From the IMG/VR virus record IMGVR_UViG_3300032007_001727: a DNA stretch of 64,000 nucleotides. One strand, 5' to 3'. Shown here piece by piece: positions 866 through 63,623 of this stretch. Source of the DNA: a virus (Duplodnaviria; Caudoviricetes). The notes under the pieces are model-generated. The model worked only from the letters and a program-made list of their open reading frames with translations. It was not told the DNA's origin and did no database searches. Position 1 is the first letter of the stretch; the number at the start of each line of letters is the position of its first letter. Both the position numbers and the translations under genes were made by a program.

Positions 866-2053
866 ATGTACTACGAATATAGCAATATTAAGAAATTATT
901 GGTGTGCGGTAACATTTCTGATAACCTTGATAATTTCATTAAGAGAGTGGTGTCCAAAATGCCGGAAAAGGGTGACTATGGTAATAAGGTTCACCCAAAG
1001 GAAATTGAAAGAAGAGAAAGAATCAATCGTCAGTTACAAGAAAACCCGACATTAACACTAACAAGTGGATTGTATAAAAACAAATCAAGGTATTCTTTAG
1101 ATTCATTCAATTCATCAAAAAACAATTTGATTGTTGTGTGTGGTTCCAACACATTCTATAACGATGATTATGGTTTTTATTTGAAAAAACTTGAAGAATT
1201 AAATGAAGTATTGTCCATGAATGAAAGCCATGTGGTTTTTATCCGTGGAAATGATAACGTTACGCTCTTCAAGAACAACGTATTAAACCTCAGTAACATT
1301 AAATGTATAGATGACTTTGGTGTTATTAAGGTTGGTGGATTCAATATGATGTGCATCGGCGGTTCAATATCAATTGACCGTGAATGGAGGAAAAGACAAC
1401 AAGAAAGGATAGGTAAGAGGTTGTATGATGAAAATGAGGGAATGGATTATAGAGACGAAGACGTTGACAAAGTTTTCAATGAACTCCCCATCCATTGTAT
1501 TCTGTCCTCTTGCGGCCCGTCATTCTCCAACCCCGGTATGGGTTTCTATTCATCCTCCAATTGGGTTCGTGATGACAAGAAACTGTATGAGGATATGAAG
1601 AATGAGAGGCTGAAAATGGATGCCTTATATAATAAGTTGATTGAAAAGAACAAGAAACCATACTTATGGATTTATAGCAAGTTCAATATGAGCAGCGAAA
1701 GCAATATGAATGATATGATATTCTTATCCATTAATAATACGCGGTTCATCAACATCAATGAAACAATGCACGAGGCATATTCAATATCCGACATAACCAA
1801 AATTAAGGGTGACAATACGGAAGATGCCAAGTCAAAATCAAAAAGGCGCAAGAAGAAGGAGGAATCACGAATGGCTTGGGATGTCGCTTGGGAGATTCAA
1901 CATCCGGTTTATCACCTTGATGTTGGAAACGATAGACAGATTGTTGGAGACTTAATAGAAGATGGTAGGGAGATTGAAGATGAAGTTGACCAAGAGTTGG
2001 ACGAGGGAGAAATCTTCGGAGAAGAACAAATTGTTGAACGCTTGGAATTTTAA
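866..2053 (+). CDS. Calcineurin-like metallophosphoesterase-fold protein with degenerate motifs
   Basis: LVCGNISD, VFIRGNDN (for GNHD), IGGSISIDR; acidic C-terminal tail. Confidence 0.6.
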   Translation: MYYEYSNIKKLLVCGNISDNLDNFIKRVVSKMPEKGDYGNKVHPKEIERRERINRQLQENPTLTLTSGLYKNKSRYSLDSFNSSKNNLIVVCGSNTFYNDDYGFYLKKLEELNEVLSMNESHVVFIRGNDNVTLFKNNVLNLSNIKCIDDFGVIKVGGFNMMCIGGSISIDREWRKRQQERIGKRLYDENEGMDYRDEDVDKVFNELPIHCILSSCGPSFSNPGMGFYSSSNWVRDDKKLYEDMKNERLKMDALYNKLIEKNKKPYLWIYSKFNMSSESNMNDMIFLSINNTRFININETMHEAYSISDITKIKGDNTEDAKSKSKRRKKKEESRMAWDVAWEIQHPVYHLDVGNDRQIVGDLIEDGREIEDEVDQELDEGEIFGEEQIVERLEF

Positions 2054-2854: not shown

Positions 2855-2972
2855 AATTTTTTGGTGTTTTTTATTAAAAAACATTAAAATAATGTGGGAT
2901 ATCTTGTGTATCTCACATTTTTTTTATACTTTTGCAAAAAATGATGGTACAAACACAGAAAGAATAATCACT

Positions 2973-4364
2973 ATGCAGATATTCAAAGAAGAAAGAATTA
3001 TCAAGTTAATTGAGTTCATAAAAGATGAAATTAAGGATACTGCCTTCAGAAACCATGTATTCGTGGTCGGTGGCAGCATCAGAGATTCATTATTGGGACT
3101 TAAGGTAAAGGATATTGACTTGGTGGTGGACATCCCAAACGGAGGTGTATTACTATCGACGTTCTTGACAGCCAAGAACAACTGCTATAGAACCGGAAAG
3201 AACCCCGTCATTTACAACAAATACGGTACCGCAAAGTTCCAATTTCTCAACCACAACGAATTCAACGACATTGAAATAGAGTGTGTACAAACTAGGAAGG
3301 AACAATACCACAATGAGAGCCGGAACCCAAAAGTCGTATTCGGCGAACTTGAAGAAGATGCCAAGAGAAGGGACTTTACGGTCAACTCAATTTACTACAA
3401 CATTAGCAGTGATAGGATAGAAGACCCGAATAACGGGTTGGATGATATTCTAAATGCTGTCATCAAGACTCCGTCAAACCCAAGAATAATCTTCATGGAA
3501 GACCCGCTCAGAATTCTGAGGGCGGTGAGGTTTTCTTGTAAATTGGGTTGGGGTATTGAAAAGGATACTTGGTTGGGCATGATTGAAAATGCCCATAGGA
3601 TAGATATCATATCCCAAGAAAGAATAACCGATGAGATAACCAAGATTTTGACATCACACAAGCCTAGTGTCGGGATAAGGAAGATGCTAGGGTGCGGATT
3701 GCTACATAGGGTATTGCCGGACATATACGACCTAATTGGCGTATCTGAGTGCGGCAAACTGTCTCTGTTTGACCATACAATGTCTGTGTTGGATGTCGTA
3801 AACCCGTGCATAGAGCACCGTTTAGCAGCCCTTTTCCATGATGTGGGCAAAGTCGTTGTCAATGGGGTTAATTCAAAACACGTTGATGTCCCCTCTTTCA
3901 GCAGTGATATTGCCTCCCATGACTTGTTTATGATGAAATATCCGAATTCCGTAATAGATACGGTTGAAAAGGCAATCAAGTATCACATGGCCTTTTCCAA
4001 TTACGGGGAATATGAAATCCCAAGGGATAAGATACTCCGGAAATTCATTCATCTAGTAGGTGATTCGATTGCACCGACATTCGACCTTATGAATGCAAAC
4101 AACGCATTCTGCGGGCGAAACAAGAAGAAGACCCAAGTCATGAACATACTGAACCGGATGGAAGAGTTGGAAAACATAGAAAATATGCAGAATGTTAAAC
4201 TTCCGGTTTCCGGAAAGGATATTATGGAGAAATTCAATCTGAAACAGTCTCCGCTGATTGGTACCCTCTTGAATGAGATAAGAGAGGCTTATTTTGAACG
4301 TCCGGACATTACAAAGGAAGAGTGCTTTGAATTGGTAGACAAAATCTTAAATAAAGTTATCTGA
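2973..4364 (+). CDS. cca: CCA tRNA nucleotidyltransferase (class II) with HD domain
   Basis: VGGSIRD, DIDL, RRDFTVN, EDPLRILRAVRF, ERITDE, FDHT...LFHDVGK. Confidence 0.93.
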   Translation: MQIFKEERIIKLIEFIKDEIKDTAFRNHVFVVGGSIRDSLLGLKVKDIDLVVDIPNGGVLLSTFLTAKNNCYRTGKNPVIYNKYGTAKFQFLNHNEFNDIEIECVQTRKEQYHNESRNPKVVFGELEEDAKRRDFTVNSIYYNISSDRIEDPNNGLDDILNAVIKTPSNPRIIFMEDPLRILRAVRFSCKLGWGIEKDTWLGMIENAHRIDIISQERITDEITKILTSHKPSVGIRKMLGCGLLHRVLPDIYDLIGVSECGKLSLFDHTMSVLDVVNPCIEHRLAALFHDVGKVVVNGVNSKHVDVPSFSSDIASHDLFMMKYPNSVIDTVEKAIKYHMAFSNYGEYEIPRDKILRKFIHLVGDSIAPTFDLMNANNAFCGRNKKKTQVMNILNRMEELENIENMQNVKLPVSGKDIMEKFNLKQSPLIGTLLNEIREAYFERPDITKEECFELVDKILNKVI

Positions 4365-11984: not shown

Positions 11985-12161
11985 ATGGCATCAAAATCAG
12001 TATTAATCAAGGCAATAGAGATATTGGAAAAAGCCAATAACACGCTTAACCGCACTCTGCTTTCAACCGATAGCAGCAGTGAAAGGGAACGCATTTCCAA
12101 GGAAATCACCAAAAACGAATCAATGATTTTAGATTATAAATTTAGGATTAACCATGAATAA
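11985..12161 (+). CDS. Small coiled-coil hypothetical protein
   Basis: Start MASKS downstream of a TACTTTTG promoter. Confidence 0.6.
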   Translation: MASKSVLIKAIEILEKANNTLNRTLLSTDSSSERERISKEITKNESMILDYKFRINHE

Positions 12162-12990
12162 TAAATTGCGCGAAGAGAGAATTGCACTCTTCAATGAGAC
12201 GGTGGATACCGCCGAAAGAGGTTCATACCTCATCAACGGGAACGAAGTTGTCATCAACGAACTTGATGACTACATGACCAACAAGACAGTCTTCTACAAG
12301 AAGAAGGTTGATATGGACCATAGCACACTCCCGAGATTCGAAACGGTCATAAAGGTTATGAACAATGATTCCCTATACGAGGGAAAGAATCTGTTGGACG
12401 ATGGCCTAAAGGTTGCAGTGCTCAATATGGCAAGTTACGTTATGCCCGGCGGAGGCGTAAGGAAGGGTTCACACGCCCAAGAGGAAGAAATATTCCTCAG
12501 AACAAACCTATACAAATCCCTCTACGCATTCCATGACATAGCGGGTGAATACAACGTGGAGAGAAACCCAAAATACTCATACCCGTTGGACTTCAGATAC
12601 GGCGGAATCTACACCCCGAAGGTGACAGTCTTCCGTGGAGGCCAAGACACCAACTATTCGTTCTTGGAAGAACCCTACACCCTTGATATTATCTCTGTCT
12701 CTGCCGTAAGGAACAAGGAGGGCATGGAGACCTCAAAGAAAACCAACGACATCACTAGGACAAAGGTAAAGCAAATGCTTGACATTGCCTTGGAAAACGG
12801 CAACGATGCCTTGGTATTGGGTGCCTTCGGCTGTGGTGCATACCACAACGACCCCACCACGGTTTCCAAGATATTTGCGGATGTATTGGTGTCTGAGGAA
12901 TATTCAAACCTCTTCAAGAAGATACACTTCGCAATCTTGGACGGTCCAAAGACCAACAATTACAACATCTTCAAGACAATATTCGGATAA
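12154..12990 (+). CDS. TIGR02452/DUF2263 bacterial-type PARG macrodomain (ADP-ribose glycohydrolase)
   Basis: VLNMAS..PGGG..GSHAQEE and LVLGAFGCGAYHN motifs. Confidence 0.88.
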   Translation: MNNKLREERIALFNETVDTAERGSYLINGNEVVINELDDYMTNKTVFYKKKVDMDHSTLPRFETVIKVMNNDSLYEGKNLLDDGLKVAVLNMASYVMPGGGVRKGSHAQEEEIFLRTNLYKSLYAFHDIAGEYNVERNPKYSYPLDFRYGGIYTPKVTVFRGGQDTNYSFLEEPYTLDIISVSAVRNKEGMETSKKTNDITRTKVKQMLDIALENGNDALVLGAFGCGAYHNDPTTVSKIFADVLVSEEYSNLFKKIHFAILDGPKTNNYNIFKTIFG

Positions 12991-38186: not shown

Positions 38187-38218
38187 AAAGTAATTAAAAA
38201 TAGATTAATAATAAAAAG

Positions 38219-38491
38219 ATGAACAAAGATATTGAAAGAATAAAGGGTATTGTGCTCTCGAAAGGGAGCACAGACCCAAAAGGCGGCAGGGTGCTCAAAC
38301 TAGAGGCCGGAAAGGTTACGGTACTATCGAGGGCCAAAGAAAGACTTTATCCCGTGGCCCTGCGCGTATACCAAGAAGAATTGCAAGTGGTTTTCGTTAA
38401 TAAGAGAAAGAGATTCTTTTCCTATCCATTGCTATCACTGCAAAGTGATGCTCCTAAGTTATTCGAAAAGGTCATATCCGTCTTTTGTTAA
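38219..38491 (+). CDS. Hypothetical protein
   Basis: ORF. Confidence 0.65.
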   Translation: MNKDIERIKGIVLSKGSTDPKGGRVLKLEAGKVTVLSRAKERLYPVALRVYQEELQVVFVNKRKRFFSYPLLSLQSDAPKLFEKVISVFC

Positions 38492-38649
38492 CAAATGTTA
38501 AAATGTTGGCAAATATTTTGGATTGTCAAATATTTTATATATCTTTGCAATGTCTTGAAAAGGACGATAAAACATAATTAAAGAACTCGGTTGCGGTGGA
38601 CAACACGCCAAACTATAGTTAAGAGTTAGGGCATTTAAAAACCACCTTT

Positions 38650-38774
38650 TGGGAAGTACTAGAGGAGAACCATCTTGCAATCCTGCAAGGGTGGATGTAG
38701 ACAAATAGGTATCAAGTTTGTGCTTGATATGTCGCCTACGGGCGGCTTCGGCGGTGCAAATCCGTCCTTCCCAA
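38650..38774 (+). ncRNA. tRNA-Tyr-like non-canonical RNA, copy 1
   Basis: Acceptor TGGGAAG/CTTCCCA+A, TA, D-stem CTA/TAG with inserted hairpin, 7-bp stem TATCAAG/CTTGATA, long variable arm, T-arm GGCGG-TGCAAAT-CCGTC. Confidence 0.8.
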
Positions 38775-38831
38775 CAAATTTCTTGCGGTGGACAAGGACG
38801 GAATTAATCCGAAAAAAAACCACCTATCTTT

Positions 38832-38947
38832 TGGAAGATACCGGAGGAGAACTATCCGCAAGGGTAGATGTAGACAAACGGGTATCAAGTATGTGCTTGA
38901 TATGTCGCTTACGAGCGGCTTCGGCGGTGCAAATCCGCCTCTTCCAA
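38832..38947 (+). ncRNA. tRNA-Tyr-like non-canonical RNA, copy 2
   Basis: Acceptor TGGAAGA/TCTTCCA+A, D-stem CCG/CGG; same fold with compensatory changes. Confidence 0.8.
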
Positions 38948-38966
38948 CACTTTTGTTTGACGCGAT

Positions 38967-39012
38967 GAGGGTTCGGCTTTTCTAAATCTTTACGGCCGAA
39001 CCCTCTATTTTT
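38967..39012 (+). terminator. Terminator of the ncRNA operon
   Basis: GAGGGTTCGGC...GCCGAACCCTC followed by a T-rich run. Confidence 0.7.
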
Positions 39013-39121
39013 ATTCAACCCCAATTGAAACATATATCACACCATAAAAAAGAAGTGTGTCATAAAACACACTTCTTTCGCTTTCTGACGGCCTTTAACC
39101 ATTGGGGCAATACTTTCCCGG

Positions 39122-39695: not shown

Positions 39696-39769
39696 CGGGG
39701 TGTAGCGCAGTTGGTTAGCGTGCTTGTTTTGGGAACAAGTGGTCGTGTGTTCGAGTCACACTACCCCGA
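39696..39769 (+). tRNA. tRNA-Pro(UGG)
   Basis: CGGGGTG/TACCCCG acceptor, CTTGT-TT TGG GA-ACAAG anticodon arm, GTGTG-TTCGAGT-CACAC; no encoded CCA; own promoter. Confidence 0.93.
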
Positions 39770-39860
39770 CATCTGCTTGAATCTATACTTGTATTTTCTA
39801 CTACCAAATTCCAACCGGCTGTGAAGTTAGTTGGAATTTTATTTTACCCATTTCCCATAT

Positions 39861-56802: not shown

Positions 56803-58134
56803 TTACTTTTTATAGCAATTTTTGCGAATATTTATCAGAATATCATTGATGAGGCCAATATCTATTGATTCCTTTATTGTTGAAGTATTTATGGCCTTAT
56901 CCAATTCAACCATATTGGAATTGAGGTTTTCAATTAGTTCATCATATTCGAACTTATGGTTTCTGATGTCCAACAAAAATTCTCTGTCCCAAGTTCTTTC
57001 AACATTCACGCCGTTGCCTTCCGCTATTTCTTTCCCCATATGTATGAGTCTGAAGCAATGCATCATATTCTTGGAATCATAATTCTTATGGAGATTGCTT
57101 TCATATCTCTTCTGATTCCGGTATTTCTCCCAATCCTTATAATTCCTATAATCCACACAATGTTTCTTGTATGCATTTTCATTGAATGATGCATAGCATA
57201 TCGGTTTTTCCCCCTTTGATACGGAAGTTAATTTCAAGGATTGTGATTTGGGGCCGACGCACCCATTATACCGTGTGGGTTTTTTATTTTCATACCATTC
57301 ACCAAGTCTATCTTTGATGTCACCATCATTAATTCCATAGAAATTTATGATAAAATCAACCATATTGCTGATGTATGATTTATTCAATAGGTTCTCATAA
57401 GATTCTTTTTCCTCTGTCGTGGATGCCTTGAGGTCGGAAACTAGTTCATCGGTCTTGAGTTTACCTATGTTATCCAAACCTTCAAATATGTCACCAATGG
57501 TTATGTTCTCTTTTAGGAAGAACGTACCCCAATCGTAATACACGCCATACATATCTTGCATGTTTGGAATTTTAACCAATCCGCAATATTCTTGCTTCAA
57601 TCCCCTATATGACAACCAATTCTCCAATTTCGTGCTTCCTTGATTAAAGAATGTATATGTAAAATCGAGCACCCCTTTTCTTTCAACTCTCTCCTTTTCC
57701 CAATTTATCATCTTGTTCAAGCCTTTCGCCTTTTCAATCTGTGCCCTAGCATACCCGATAAACGGTTTAAAACATTCCTTTGTGATGAATTCCTCCTTGT
57801 TTTCAAACAAAGGTATGATGACATCATTCGGAGGTGTTATAATCTTATATGTTGGAACAAATAGAGCCTCCAATGTATTTGGATTGGATTTTAACAACAT
57901 ACCGAAAAATTTACCAATTTCGTAGAAATTGTTATCGTTCCTATCATCTGAGACAAGGTCTTCATAGAACATGTCCAAACCGTATAGTTTTTCCTTTGGT
58001 ATTATGAAAATACCTTTTGTGTCAATGTCACTGCCATCGACATTTAGGTTATACAAATGGGAACCGGAAATATACGAATAAACCAATTCTCCCTTTTCTT
58101 TCGGAAATTTAAAAGTAAAATTATTGATGTCCAT
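56803..58134 (-). CDS. Predicted nucleotidyltransferase (RlaP/YcgL, T4 NrdC.11-like)
   Basis: GSHLY.L....SDIDTKGIF, NPNTLE.LF, YDSKNMMHCFRL. Confidence 0.85.
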   Translation of the reverse strand: MDINNFTFKFPKEKGELVYSYISGSHLYNLNVDGSDIDTKGIFIIPKEKLYGLDMFYEDLVSDDRNDNNFYEIGKFFGMLLKSNPNTLEALFVPTYKIITPPNDVIIPLFENKEEFITKECFKPFIGYARAQIEKAKGLNKMINWEKERVERKGVLDFTYTFFNQGSTKLENWLSYRGLKQEYCGLVKIPNMQDMYGVYYDWGTFFLKENITIGDIFEGLDNIGKLKTDELVSDLKASTTEEKESYENLLNKSYISNMVDFIINFYGINDGDIKDRLGEWYENKKPTRYNGCVGPKSQSLKLTSVSKGEKPICYASFNENAYKKHCVDYRNYKDWEKYRNQKRYESNLHKNYDSKNMMHCFRLIHMGKEIAEGNGVNVERTWDREFLLDIRNHKFEYDELIENLNSNMVELDKAINTSTIKESIDIGLINDILINIRKNCYKK

Positions 58135-58606: not shown

Positions 58607-59422
58607 TTATTCTTCAAACGTTATCCTAGATTCGACATATTGCCTATCCTCACCTTTAAGGATTGGCATTTCGTAATCTATTAGCCAACCTTCATCGGAT
58701 TTAACCACCGCTGTCCCTCTCTTTTCGGCAACAGATAAGTTATTCCAATTTATGTTGAATTTTTCCATCAGCATATCTTGAATTTGTGAGGTATTCTTTC
58801 CTTTTAATTCCTTATGGGAGAAGAATGCTTGACCTAGGCTGCTAACCGAATTCCTAGAACAGTCTTGTTGTCTCCAAAGGATACAGTTTGTAACCTCAGA
58901 CAATGGGACGTTGAATACCCTAGCATCGAACAAGGCACCGGTCTTTAGTGCCCTCTTATATCCATTTATGGCCCTTTCAACCATTTCGGATGCATCGCCG
59001 TATATTTCACGGTAGTCACCGTCGGTTCCATATTCAGAAATGAAGGCATTTGCCTTTTTGGCAAATATTCTGTTGAAATACAGTGTACACATGGATGCAA
59101 CGACCGAGCATACTTTTTGTACGTTATAGTCAAACCATGCACATGTATCCAATGTATTATAGTCCACCAATACTAGGGTAATCTCATCGGATTGGGTATA
59201 GCCAAAGACGCAGCCTTGAATGTTTTTGCAGAGTTCCAATGTAGTTTCTTGCATTGTCTCCATGAACCTTTGGTCAAACGGCTTCACAAAGCCTTTTGTG
59301 AAGGTATGGAACGCCTTTCCGTCCAATCTTATAATAACCGGTGTCCTCCTCAATAAATATGTTTTTGACCGATTCTCATAGTTGAGTTTCATCCGGTCAC
59401 CCAAACTATCTTTTGTTGCCAT
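58607..59422 (-). CDS. thg1: tRNA(His) guanylyltransferase Thg1-like protein
   Basis: DRMK.YE, IRLDGKAFHTFT, YTQSDEI, FDARVF, WRQQD..RNS. Confidence 0.92.
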   Translation of the reverse strand: MATKDSLGDRMKLNYENRSKTYLLRRTPVIIRLDGKAFHTFTKGFVKPFDQRFMETMQETTLELCKNIQGCVFGYTQSDEITLVLVDYNTLDTCAWFDYNVQKVCSVVASMCTLYFNRIFAKKANAFISEYGTDGDYREIYGDASEMVERAINGYKRALKTGALFDARVFNVPLSEVTNCILWRQQDCSRNSVSSLGQAFFSHKELKGKNTSQIQDMLMEKFNINWNNLSVAEKRGTAVVKSDEGWLIDYEMPILKGEDRQYVESRITFEE

Positions 59423-62291: not shown

Positions 62292-63581
62292 TTACTTTGC
62301 AATTACCAAGCAATAGTCTTTCTTTCCTTTCTGCAACAACAAATACTTGTCATCGATGAGTTGACCGTGTCCGACAATCACTTTGTCATTATTAACCTTT
62401 TTCTTGTTAATGGAAAATCCGTTTGCCTTTATCAACTTCTTGGCCTCAGTCTTCGATGTAATTTTATCGTGCATCAACGCAATATCGATAATCGGCATTC
62501 CGTTTTCAAATTCACCCTTATTGACTTCAACTTTGCTAACATCCTTCATTACATCTAGGAATGTATCCTCATCCATCCTTTCCAATGCCTCCGTGGTGCC
62601 GTTTCCAAAAAGAATTTCTGATGCTGCAATAGCCTTGTTGTAGTCATTCTCAGAATGAACCAAGCAAGTCATGTATTTTGCAAGTTCGCCTTGTAGGTAT
62701 CTCTTGCTAGGATTCTCACGGTGCTTTGAAATCATTGCACCTATTTCTTCAAGTGGAATTAAGGTGAACTTCTTGATAAAGGATTCAGCATCCTCGTCAC
62801 TTTGATTCAACCAAAACTGATAGAATTGGAACGGTGTTGTCTTATTTGGGTCGAGCCAAACGCTGTTGCCTTCTGTTTTGCCGAATTTCCTACCGTCGGC
62901 ACAAGTTATCAAATCCCAAGTGATTCCGCATACATCATCCTTGCCCAATACCTTATGGATAAGGTCTTGTCCGGTTACCATGTTTCCCAAATTATCGGTC
63001 CCGGCAATCTGAAGTTTGCACCCATATTCTCTGTATAAGTGCAAGAAATCATACCCTTGCAAGAGACCATATGAGAACTCTTGGAATGATATGCCGTTTC
63101 CCTCTCTTTCGAGGCGCTTTCGCACGTTTTCCTTTGCCATAAGGTAGTTCACGGTGATTTTCTTGCCGACATCACGTATAAAATCCAAGAATTTATAATC
63201 CTTGTACCAATCATAGTTATTCACCATAATGGCACCGTTTGGCAAACTTGAATCAAAGTCAATTATCTTTGAAATCTGTTTCTTGACACATTCTACATTG
63301 TGGAAGACCGTTTCCATTGAAATGGCTTTTCTTTCCTCGCTCTTGCCGCTTGGGTCACCGATGGCACAAGTTGCACCACCCACAAGTATTATTGGCTTAT
63401 GCCCGAATTGCTGAAACATTCTAGCAACCATAAGTCCGACCATATGGTGAACACCTAGCGAATCCGCCGTAGGGTCCAAGCCTATGTACAGCGTTGTCGG
63501 TTTACTTAGGCATTCTTCAAGATTGCCGAATACTTGTGAATACAAGCCCCTTTCCTTGAGTTCTTTAATTAATGGATTCAT
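62292..63581 (-). CDS. tyrS: Tyrosyl-tRNA synthetase with altered HIGH motif
   Basis: YIGLDPTADSL, GGAT..IGDPSG, EFSYGLLQGYD, KFGKT, S4-like tail. Confidence 0.95.
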   Translation of the reverse strand: MNPLIKELKERGLYSQVFGNLEECLSKPTTLYIGLDPTADSLGVHHMVGLMVARMFQQFGHKPIILVGGATCAIGDPSGKSEERKAISMETVFHNVECVKKQISKIIDFDSSLPNGAIMVNNYDWYKDYKFLDFIRDVGKKITVNYLMAKENVRKRLEREGNGISFQEFSYGLLQGYDFLHLYREYGCKLQIAGTDNLGNMVTGQDLIHKVLGKDDVCGITWDLITCADGRKFGKTEGNSVWLDPNKTTPFQFYQFWLNQSDEDAESFIKKFTLIPLEEIGAMISKHRENPSKRYLQGELAKYMTCLVHSENDYNKAIAASEILFGNGTTEALERMDEDTFLDVMKDVSKVEVNKGEFENGMPIIDIALMHDKITSKTEAKKLIKANGFSINKKKVNNDKVIVGHGQLIDDKYLLLQKGKKDYCLVIAK

Positions 63582-63623
63582 TTCTTTCTTTTTTATTATT
63601 TTGTTTAACAACTAATAAGTTAC

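Follow-up and report, generated by a model that had tools for sequence, protein, structure and literature searches.

We investigated two RNA genes in a stretch of 64,000 nucleotides (nt) from a virus of the class Caudoviricetes (IMG/VR virus record IMGVR_UViG_3300032007_001727; the whole stretch is called the window below). The genes, at 38650-38775 and 38832-38948 on the + strand, encode tRNA-like RNAs of about 120 nt that fold as full L-shaped tRNAs with an intact elbow. They belong to a phage-only family confined to a clade of rumen giant phages that encode a tyrosyl-tRNA synthetase (TyrRS), a CCA-adding enzyme and a Thg1-like enzyme. We propose, with a probability of roughly 45%, that they are genes for phage-private tRNA-Tyr paralogues, L-shaped and non-decoding, which are recognized by TyrRS and act off the ribosome as bait in a conflict over tRNA-Tyr. 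We refer to these RNAs as tRNA-Tyr mimics.

Fold and elbow of the mimics

RNAfold gave each copy, folding on its own, as a cloverleaf plus one extra helix, in agreement with the two class II tRNA-like copies that a first-pass annotation had placed here. The 5' half consists of a 7-bp acceptor stem, U8-A9, a 3-bp D stem, a hairpin in the D loop and a long closed arm at the anticodon position; the 3' half consists of a 6-bp variable arm with a UACG loop, a UUC junction, a 5-bp T stem with the loop UGCAAAU, and A73-C74. Copy 1 comprises the acceptor (38650-56/38767-73), U8A9 (38657-58), the D stem (38659-61/38706-08), the D-loop insert (38665-38697), A18 G19 (38699-38700), the closed anticodon arm (38710-29; loop UUUGUG, 38717-22), the variable arm (38731-46), UUC (38747-49), the T arm (38750-66) and A73 C74 (38774-75). 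The corresponding parts of copy 2 are the acceptor (38832-38/38940-46), D stem (38841-43/38879-81), insert (38847-38870, with a GCAA loop), closed anticodon arm (38883-38902, loop UAUGUG), variable arm (38904-19), T arm (38923-39) and A73 C74 (38947-48). The two copies are 83% identical to each other. Their folding energies were -49 and -44.7 kcal/mol (z = -4.0 and -4.2), and 0 of 200 dinucleotide shuffles folded as well; R1, a covariance model of the family, scored them at 111.4 bits (E 2e-26) and 120.6 bits (E 8e-29), respectively.

The tRNA hallmarks of a 7-bp acceptor, 5-bp T stem, 7-nt T loop, U8, A14, G53:C61 and an elbow pair are present, and the acceptor/T-stem geometry is 7/5 in all copies of the family. 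Two features of the bacterial-type class II tRNA-Tyr, A73 (129 of 129 family copies) and a long variable arm (5-6 bp and capped by a tetraloop across the family), are found as well, whereas the anticodon GUA is absent from the window copies, in which a 7-bp stem at the anticodon position closes a 6-nt loop without U33 or a readable anticodon. ARAGORN and Rfam (at the gathering score and also at E <= 10) made no call in 38450-39100, as had been expected for RNAs that should escape a clean tRNAscan-type call.

The first-pass annotation took the GG of the D loop to be replaced by the insert, which proved incorrect: the insert (GAGAAC-hairpin-GAUG) sits between G15 and U17, 5' of positions 18/19, and A18-G19 in 'GUAGA' hold the place of GG. 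Without the insert, the D loop is 11 nt long, equal to that of the parent tRNA. The universal tRNA elbow contact is G18/U55. In 128 copies, the D-loop 'GUAGA' goes with the T loop UGCAAAU, giving A18/G55; one copy of subfamily A (L026:3012-3131) combines 'GUGGA' with UUCAAAU, which gives G18/U55, and all seven hairpin-bearing copies examined in the diverged subfamily B have GG with UUCGAAU. With G19:C56 retained and G18/U55 replaced by A18/G55, the mimics still have an intact elbow and, with it, the L shape.

Two readings of the insert gained no support. As an intron, it would have to be removed, and the pairs of the insert base form no bulge-helix-bulge while RNA contigs are colinear with the DNA across the insert with no insert-skipping joint, although contigs may miss spliced forms; as a k-turn or sarcin-ricin motif, the insert base gave no fit by inspection.

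Phage genes called as tRNA-Met(CAU), 82-86 nt long, have an extra variable arm, the D loop AAGUAGUCAAA and the T loop UGCAAAU, i.e., the same A18/G55 elbow as the mimics (L025:2778-2860(-), L026:901-983(-), L029:2618-2699(-), L015:1938-2023(+) and L215:1503-1585(-)); several have a mismatched 1:72. These may be unusual initiator or Ile2-type tRNAs.

Family extent and conservation

The family was found via the invariant D-loop words GAGGAGAAC ... GAUGUAGACAAA, a search that returned 28 IMG/VR loci and more than 119 metagenome loci. We gathered 129 distinct full-length copies with a perfect or near-perfect acceptor stem, and the R1 model, built as the first-pass annotation had suggested, scored family members at 102-140 bits. 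All members lie on rumen giant-phage or metagenome contigs, with carrier contigs of up to 295-413 kb from cattle-rumen samples. No confirmed copy was found in 185,579 prokaryote species genomes, where two matches to the D-loop motif were due to chance (long gaps and no confirmation by R1), and the locus had no blastn match among 50,697 phage records. A search with the exact T-arm word TTCGGCGGTGCAAATCC yielded 17 unrelated protein-coding matches and one odd tRNA, and a pattern for subfamily B matched 51 loci and was confirmed only for three already known contigs. Copies are single, paired or arranged head to tail in arrays of up to 5 units, 4-6 nt apart, within islands of tRNA and transfer-messenger RNA (tmRNA) genes and often immediately 3' of a tRNA-Met gene.

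The structure-preserving differences noticed between the window copies are real and extend across the family. In an unbiased MAFFT alignment, compensatory double changes occurred in 25 of the 35 pairs; in a model-fitted alignment of 95 further distinct sequences, 99% of the cells were paired and 27 of the 35 pairs had double changes. This level was reached by 0 of 500 shuffles, and slid partners paired in 34-43%. Acceptor pairs 3-7 show three to five pair types each among the 129 copies (pair 3:70 is G:C, A:U or U:A, rarely G:U), and the T stem, variable arm and inserted hairpin vary freely yet remain paired, with a T-stem bulge in 41 copies and a GNRA tetraloop capping the inserted hairpin in 105. 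Conversely, U1:A72, G2:C71, A73-C74, U8-A9 and UUC are invariant in all 129, GAGGAGAAC, GAUGUAGACAAA and G53-UGCAAAU-C61 are nearly so, and at least 21 loop nucleotides are invariant across the family. A73-C74 is followed in every copy by nucleotides other than CA, and CCA is not encoded. These results show selection on the secondary structure and on one tertiary pair, 18:55.

The elements might instead be decaying tRNA pseudogenes, or processing punctuation for neighbouring RNAs, since their location among tRNA genes would draw RNase P and RNase Z. We regard this as very improbable. Both variants are already contradicted by the conservation pattern, in which massive compensatory change accompanies 99% pairing and the invariant loop nucleotides. 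The tertiary pair that covaries and the leader private to the family also speak against them, as do the promoter and terminator in the window, which serve a unit that holds no further gene. The earlier view of a selected, non-decoding class rather than of decay was borne out.

One family member (L131:2274-2477(-)) has an AT-rich insertion of ~90-100 nt in its D-loop hairpin; either the hairpin tolerates large additions or this copy is disrupted.

Descent from phage tRNA-Tyr

Among complete relatives, the best canonical matches of R1 were the phages' own tRNA-Tyr(GTA), at 40-50 bits. An example of the parent tRNA-Tyr reads UGUGGAG-UU-CCA-GAGUGGUCAAA-UGG-G-...CUGUAAA...-U-GCUUCGGC-UUC-GUAGG-UUCAAAU-CCUAC-CUCCACA-AC and has the acceptor end, D arm, variable-arm loop, junction and 3' signature in common with the mimics. 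As judged from these shared features, the mimics descend from the phages' own tRNA-Tyr(GUA), which upholds the derivation suggested by the first-pass annotation, and some relatives even keep the loop CUGUAAA. Pairwise identity to tRNA-Tyr versus other phage tRNAs (63-74%) was non-discriminating and was not used.

The closest known RNAs are the class II tRNA-Tyr(GUA) of phages and bacteria, above all the 82-nt 'type 1' tRNA-Tyr of related giant phages (L052:155-236, L051:152-233, L208:1503-1584). The latter and the mimics share U1:A72, G2:C71, A73-C74, the D arm CCA-GAG...CAAA-UGG, G26, a UUCG-type variable arm, the UUC junction, G53:C61 and a 7-nt T loop. The mimics differ from it in the GNRA-capped hairpin of 24-33 nt, the A18/G55 elbow, a variable arm of 5-6 bp instead of the 2 bp of the parent, the closed or shortened anticodon loop that has lost U33, and the pseudoknot leader on some copies. 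In G003, the R1 model found no 'type 1' tRNA-Tyr of 82 nt.

The anticodon position forms a graded series among the 129 copies. Three copies have a 5-bp stem with the loop CUGUAAA and one has CCGUAAA; 21 have Y-GGUAA-R, i.e., G33 with 32:38 paired; and in approximately 100, to which both window copies belong, a 7-bp stem closes the 6-nt loop N3-GUG. Hence, GUA is retained in 25 of the 129 copies and a 7-nt loop in only 4, whereas G-U-R is retained in every copy although U33 and the loop geometry are lost. The four relatives with a 5-bp stem and a 7-nt GUA loop (e.g., L112:9039-9153, L071:3503-3617, L022:9137-9253) would suit an unusually shaped but decoding tRNA-Tyr. To this reading we give very little credence, because the window copies and the many copies like them offer no readable anticodon frame, another 21 have the paired 32:38, and canonical decoding tRNA-Tyr genes are kept separately in these phages, next to tRNA-Pro(UGG). 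The mimic pair in the window likewise neighbours a tRNA-Pro(UGG) (39696-39770, +; ARAGORN/Rfam), which is the sole tRNA called in the 64-kb window.

Several other tRNA genes of these phages were noted. A second kind of phage tRNA-Tyr(GUA), 87-90 nt long with U1:A72, C2:G71 and C73, lies beside tRNA-Pro(UGG) and is carried by the closest relatives of the window phage (L217:18803-18889(-), L220:10155-10241(-), L051:239-328(-)). Two tandem genes with tRNA-Tyr bodies and no D-loop insert (L206:1503-1593(-) and 1596-1687(-); G037:342097-342286) have the odd anticodon loops UUUAGUGG (8 nt) and UUAGUAG, and ARAGORN calls them as a 4-base 'tagt' and 'Thr(agt)'. A conserved 72-nt tRNA-like gene near tRNA-Pro/tRNA-His (L217:18528-18599(-), L220:9607-9678(-), L208:976-1046(-); between them in L217 and L220), to which ARAGORN gives a 2-base 'anticodon' (tt), is a candidate non-standard tRNA. 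Related giant phages also encode their own tmRNA (tag GENVDSPAYEYAVAA and variants; L021:8016-8388, L023:3945-4300, L216:18192-18517 and others), an amber-suppressor tRNA(CUA), ~46 tRNAs, and long (83-90 nt) Lys, Thr and Trp tRNAs.

Transcription unit and expression

The two copies form one transcription unit in the order promoter, leader pseudoknot, copy 1, leader pseudoknot, copy 2 and terminator. Bacteroides promoters follow the consensus TTTG / TAnnTTTG, and a promoter of this Bacteroidetes type is located at 38517-38547 (+), with the -33 TTTG at 38517-38520, a 19-nt spacer and the -7 box TATCTTTG at 38540-38547; the same box also occurs 13 nt 5' of the tRNA-Pro at 39696. Sequence and whole-unit fold both gave an intrinsic terminator at 38967-39015 (+), composed of a 12-bp stem (38967-78/38994-39005), a 15-nt loop and the T-run UAUUUUUAUU. 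With a loop of more than 8 nt, it escaped a simple terminator scanner. The promoter and terminator that the first-pass annotation had attributed to the pair are therefore present. Its two copies were placed correctly too, but the repeat unit is longer than it supposed, with a pseudoknot leader before each copy.

Leader pseudoknot 1 (38590-38646, +) is of the H type, with the first stem (S1) GUUG 38590-93/CAAC 38601-04, the second stem (S2) GGUGG 38595-99/CCACC 38642-46 and an A-rich third loop (38605-41). Leader pseudoknot 2 (38782-38824, +) has S1 CUUG 38782-85/CAAG 38793-96 and S2 GGUGG 38787-91/CCACC 38820-24, so that the first S1 pair covaries between the window leaders (G:C versus C:G). 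The pseudoknot NUUG-Y-GGUGG-A-CAAN-(N)A5-6-CCACC was found in 44 distinct upstream contexts, both window copies included (others are, e.g., L024:12135-12175(-) and L037:1071-1113(+)), and ends 2-7 nt (usually 3) 5' of U1. Across these contexts, the first S1 pair was C:G in 20, G:C in 16 and U:A in 8, with no mismatch, and S2 was GGUGG/CCACC in 42 and GGUGU/ACACC in 2. In all DNA examined, each of 58 distinct leader instances directly precedes an element, and none precedes anything else. The leader matched no Rfam family, and a preQ1-type riboswitch was rejected since Rfam gave it no support at E <= 10. The leader might control cleavage by RNase P, shield the 5' end or serve as a ligand-binding site.

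Expression was checked as well. RNA contigs assembled from three independent studies of bovine metatranscriptomes (runs X6, X16 and X17) share a start at 38562 with no loose end, 15 nt past the -7 box, and extend across the leader and copy 1; the upstream open reading frame region (38200-38527) is uncovered in the same contigs. This common boundary is a weak hint of a transcript start at 38562, with 38562-38589 (+) as the apparent 5' end of the primary transcript. A fourth RNA library contained tandem arrays of close relatives at a depth of ~48. As contigs, these data show presence in the libraries and a common 5' boundary, not mature 5'/3' ends or CCA, and gaps in the coverage of the locus by RNA runs carry no meaning.

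TyrRS and other candidate partners

The window encodes a TyrRS (62292-63611, -; Pfam tRNA-synt_1b 1.8e-64 and SYY C-terminal domain), the candidate partner of the mimics, and a CCA-adding enzyme (2892-4364, +; Pfam PolyA_pol 6.5e-24 and RNA-binding domain), a candidate maturation enzyme. TyrRS was found in all five element-bearing contigs that are at least 90% complete. In the reverse test, non-standard paralogues resembling tRNA-Tyr turned up in each of four additional TyrRS-bearing contigs of at least 95% completeness: three have hairpin-bearing subfamily B copies, and the fourth has insert-less variants with odd 7-8-nt loops. With 9 of 9 genomes at least 90% complete thus containing TyrRS, the link to this enzyme drawn by the first-pass annotation stood, but not its restriction to an atypical GxHH type: GVHH replaces the class I HIGH motif in the window TyrRS and in G003 and G012, whereas G001, G002 and G004 have HLGH, and carriers with such a normal TyrRS have the same RNA. 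The synthetase families PF00133, PF00587 and PF00152 (11 specificities) were found in 0 of 5 complete genomes, leaving TyrRS as the sole synthetase among the four families searched. All carriers are likely one phage clade, so the TyrRS link is an association, not proof.

Bacterial TyrRS recognizes an identity set made up of the acceptor end with A73, a long variable arm and G34/U35, with the D loop outside the set. Retention of such a set together with loss of the decoding features could indicate a non-ribosomal tyrosine carrier, which would be charged by TyrRS and donate Tyr to a tRNA-dependent transferase, the D-loop helix serving as an enzyme handle. This would also accord with the lack of any other synthetase among those searched, with the freely varying and often bulged T stems, which show no sign of EF-Tu constraint, and with the resemblance of the invariant insert to a protein or ligand site. 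Nevertheless, we consider a carrier unlikely: domains of FemAB, L/F-transferase, cyclodipeptide synthase and aminoacyl-phosphatidylglycerol synthase were found in 0 of 5 complete relatives, no conserved protein gene adjoins the elements, and we know of no tyrosine-using transferase of this kind in phages.

The same identity set would equally suit a ligand or regulator of TyrRS or of another tRNA enzyme, which might, for example, adjust the activity of the phage TyrRS, sequester the host TyrRS, or keep Tgt, the Thg1-like enzyme or the CCA-adding enzyme engaged. A Thg1-like enzyme is encoded by 5 of 5 complete relatives and by the window, and the window loops contain UGU, the core motif of Tgt. 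However, most relatives have CGU or GGU instead of UGU, tyrS is unlinked to the mimic genes (24 kb away in the window), and no single enzyme is singled out, so we judge a regulatory role to be quite improbable.

The phage is also rich in RNA-repair genes (RlaP, Thg1-like, CCA-adding), and Bacteroides hosts possess a TROVE protein (the control of our search), which might suggest a Y-RNA-like (YrlA-type) mimic acting with a Ro/Rsr ring in RNA repair. Among the readings considered, this is the one we find hardest to credit. TROVE (Ro) was found in 0 of 5 complete relatives, Rfam gave no match, and the topology differs, as the mimics have free 5'/3' acceptor ends, no Ro-binding stem, and full anticodon-position and variable arms.

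RNA-end repair and conflict genes of the window (2892-4364, 12154-12990, 56803-58134 and 58607-59422) form a cluster that comprises the CCA-adding enzyme, a microbial PARG, the RlaP nucleotidyltransferase and the Thg1-like 3'-5' polymerase. The window additionally encodes three BspA-type leucine-rich-repeat proteins.

Proposed role

In the bait reading that we favour, the mimics would be processed in the manner of neighbouring tRNAs, with release by RNase P and RNase Z and addition of CCA, as suggested by U(-1), N73-C74 without an encoded CCA, the tandem spacing of 4-6 nt and the phage CCA-adding enzyme; all tRNAs of these phages have U(-1) and an encoded N73-C74, with no CCA. TyrRS would still recognize and probably tyrosylate them, given that U1:A72, G2:C71, A73, the long variable arm and G34-U35-R36 are fixed while other stem positions drift. 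Loss of U33 and of the 7-nt loop, the helix protruding beside the elbow, and the bulged T stem in a third of the copies would exclude them from the ribosome. As high-dose stand-ins for tRNA-Tyr, they could then divert, as a bait or a sponge, a host effector directed against tRNA-Tyr or against the long variable arm of this tRNA, and meanwhile the phage TyrRS and two decoding tRNA-Tyr species would sustain translation.

There is precedent for such a conflict. In E. coli, Septu and retron-Eco7 PtuAB deplete tRNA-Tyr via a cut in the variable arm, and phages evade PtuAB with a higher dose of tRNA-Tyr, also through tandem amplification; action as a decoy has been suggested as well (PMC13096335, PMC11555353). 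The phage genes in those systems resemble the mimics in being phage tRNA-Tyr genes with high expression or tandem amplification in a conflict over the variable arm. They decode, however, and their anticodon is needed for rescue, whereas the mimics are non-decoding and carry new structural modules.

Several points weigh against the bait reading. According to a figure legend (PMC11555353, Fig. 3e), an anticodon change abolished the rescue from retron-Eco7 by phage tRNA-Tyr in E. coli, which suggests supplementation rather than decoy, and PtuAB, once purified, failed to bind or cleave tRNA-Tyr in vitro (PMC12819146), which leaves the target mechanism itself debatable. The PtuAB precedent comes from E. 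coli, and the mimics copy the phage U1:A72 tRNA-Tyr, not the host-type G1:C72 tRNA-Tyr. Maturation, CCA addition, charging and binding are steps that we infer, and RNA contigs cannot show ends. Co-occurrence with TyrRS, the Thg1-like enzyme and the CCA-adding enzyme may reflect shared ancestry in one phage clade and is not independent support. Finally, the reading accounts neither for the strict conservation of the insert base (GAGGAGAAC / GAUGU) nor for the leader pseudoknot private to the family.

A broader proposal, which we hold only tentatively, is a private tyrosine circuit: the phage TyrRS might charge or clamp a ribosome-excluded mimic, which would act either as an uncleavable bait that disarms a host immune nuclease aimed at tRNA-Tyr or as a dedicated carrier of activated tyrosine for some phage enzyme, with the pseudoknot gating maturation. 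The added D-loop helix and the enlarged variable arm would then confer the bait or carrier role.

Comparison with known systems

Staphylococcus non-proteinogenic tRNA-Gly are donors for FemXAB. Like the mimics, they are extra tRNA paralogues for an off-ribosome role that are encoded beside normal tRNAs, but they keep the cloverleaf and anticodon and differ mainly in EF-Tu determinants, whereas in the mimics the anticodon loop is destroyed and an arm is added. Moreover, no transferase partner was found for the mimics among four families in five complete relatives. YrlA and the tRNA-like domain of tmRNA share with the mimics a non-decoding nature with the tRNA elbow and T arm kept. However, the ends of YrlA are closed, and it has a Ro-binding stem but lacks a variable arm, and tmRNA has the G3:U70 alanine identity, an open reading frame and no D stem; ARAGORN finds separate true tmRNAs in relatives but none at the window locus.

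Allo-tRNA-like irregular polycistrons (Mukai et al. 2017, as reviewed in PMC7609411) are tandem, odd, possibly five-stem RNAs missed by gene finders. They have 8/4 or 9/3 geometry, come from soil bacteria and have an extra loop between the acceptor and D stems, whereas the mimics are 7/5, have the helix in the D loop and are of phage origin.

Bromovirus tRNA-like structures are genome 3' ends, and T4 stable RNAs C and D lie in a tRNA cluster and are not derivatives of tRNA-Tyr. The tyrosine-accepting structures of the former and the two T4 RNAs are likewise viral and non-decoding with tRNA-like ends, but the mimics have no sequence or architectural kinship with them. No description of the family was found in Rfam 15 or in the literature searched, which comprised reviews on non-canonical tRNAs and on the RNA systems of jumbo phages, among other texts.

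Few tRNA look-alikes that do not decode are known, and each of them (tmRNA, Y RNAs, cell-wall tRNAs) opened a field. The mimics add a large, cleanly defined and expressed family that was overlooked by gene finders and Rfam, and a new five-helix tRNA architecture with a natural swap of the elbow from G18/U55 to A18/G55, and they connect to the newly found immune attack on tRNA-Tyr. If they are bait, they would represent an RNA-based counter-defence made from tRNA; if they are carriers, the phages would possess a natural orthogonal pair of TyrRS and a tRNA-like RNA. Either way, the family provides a covariance model for the annotation of giant phages and a concrete, testable RNA-protein pair.

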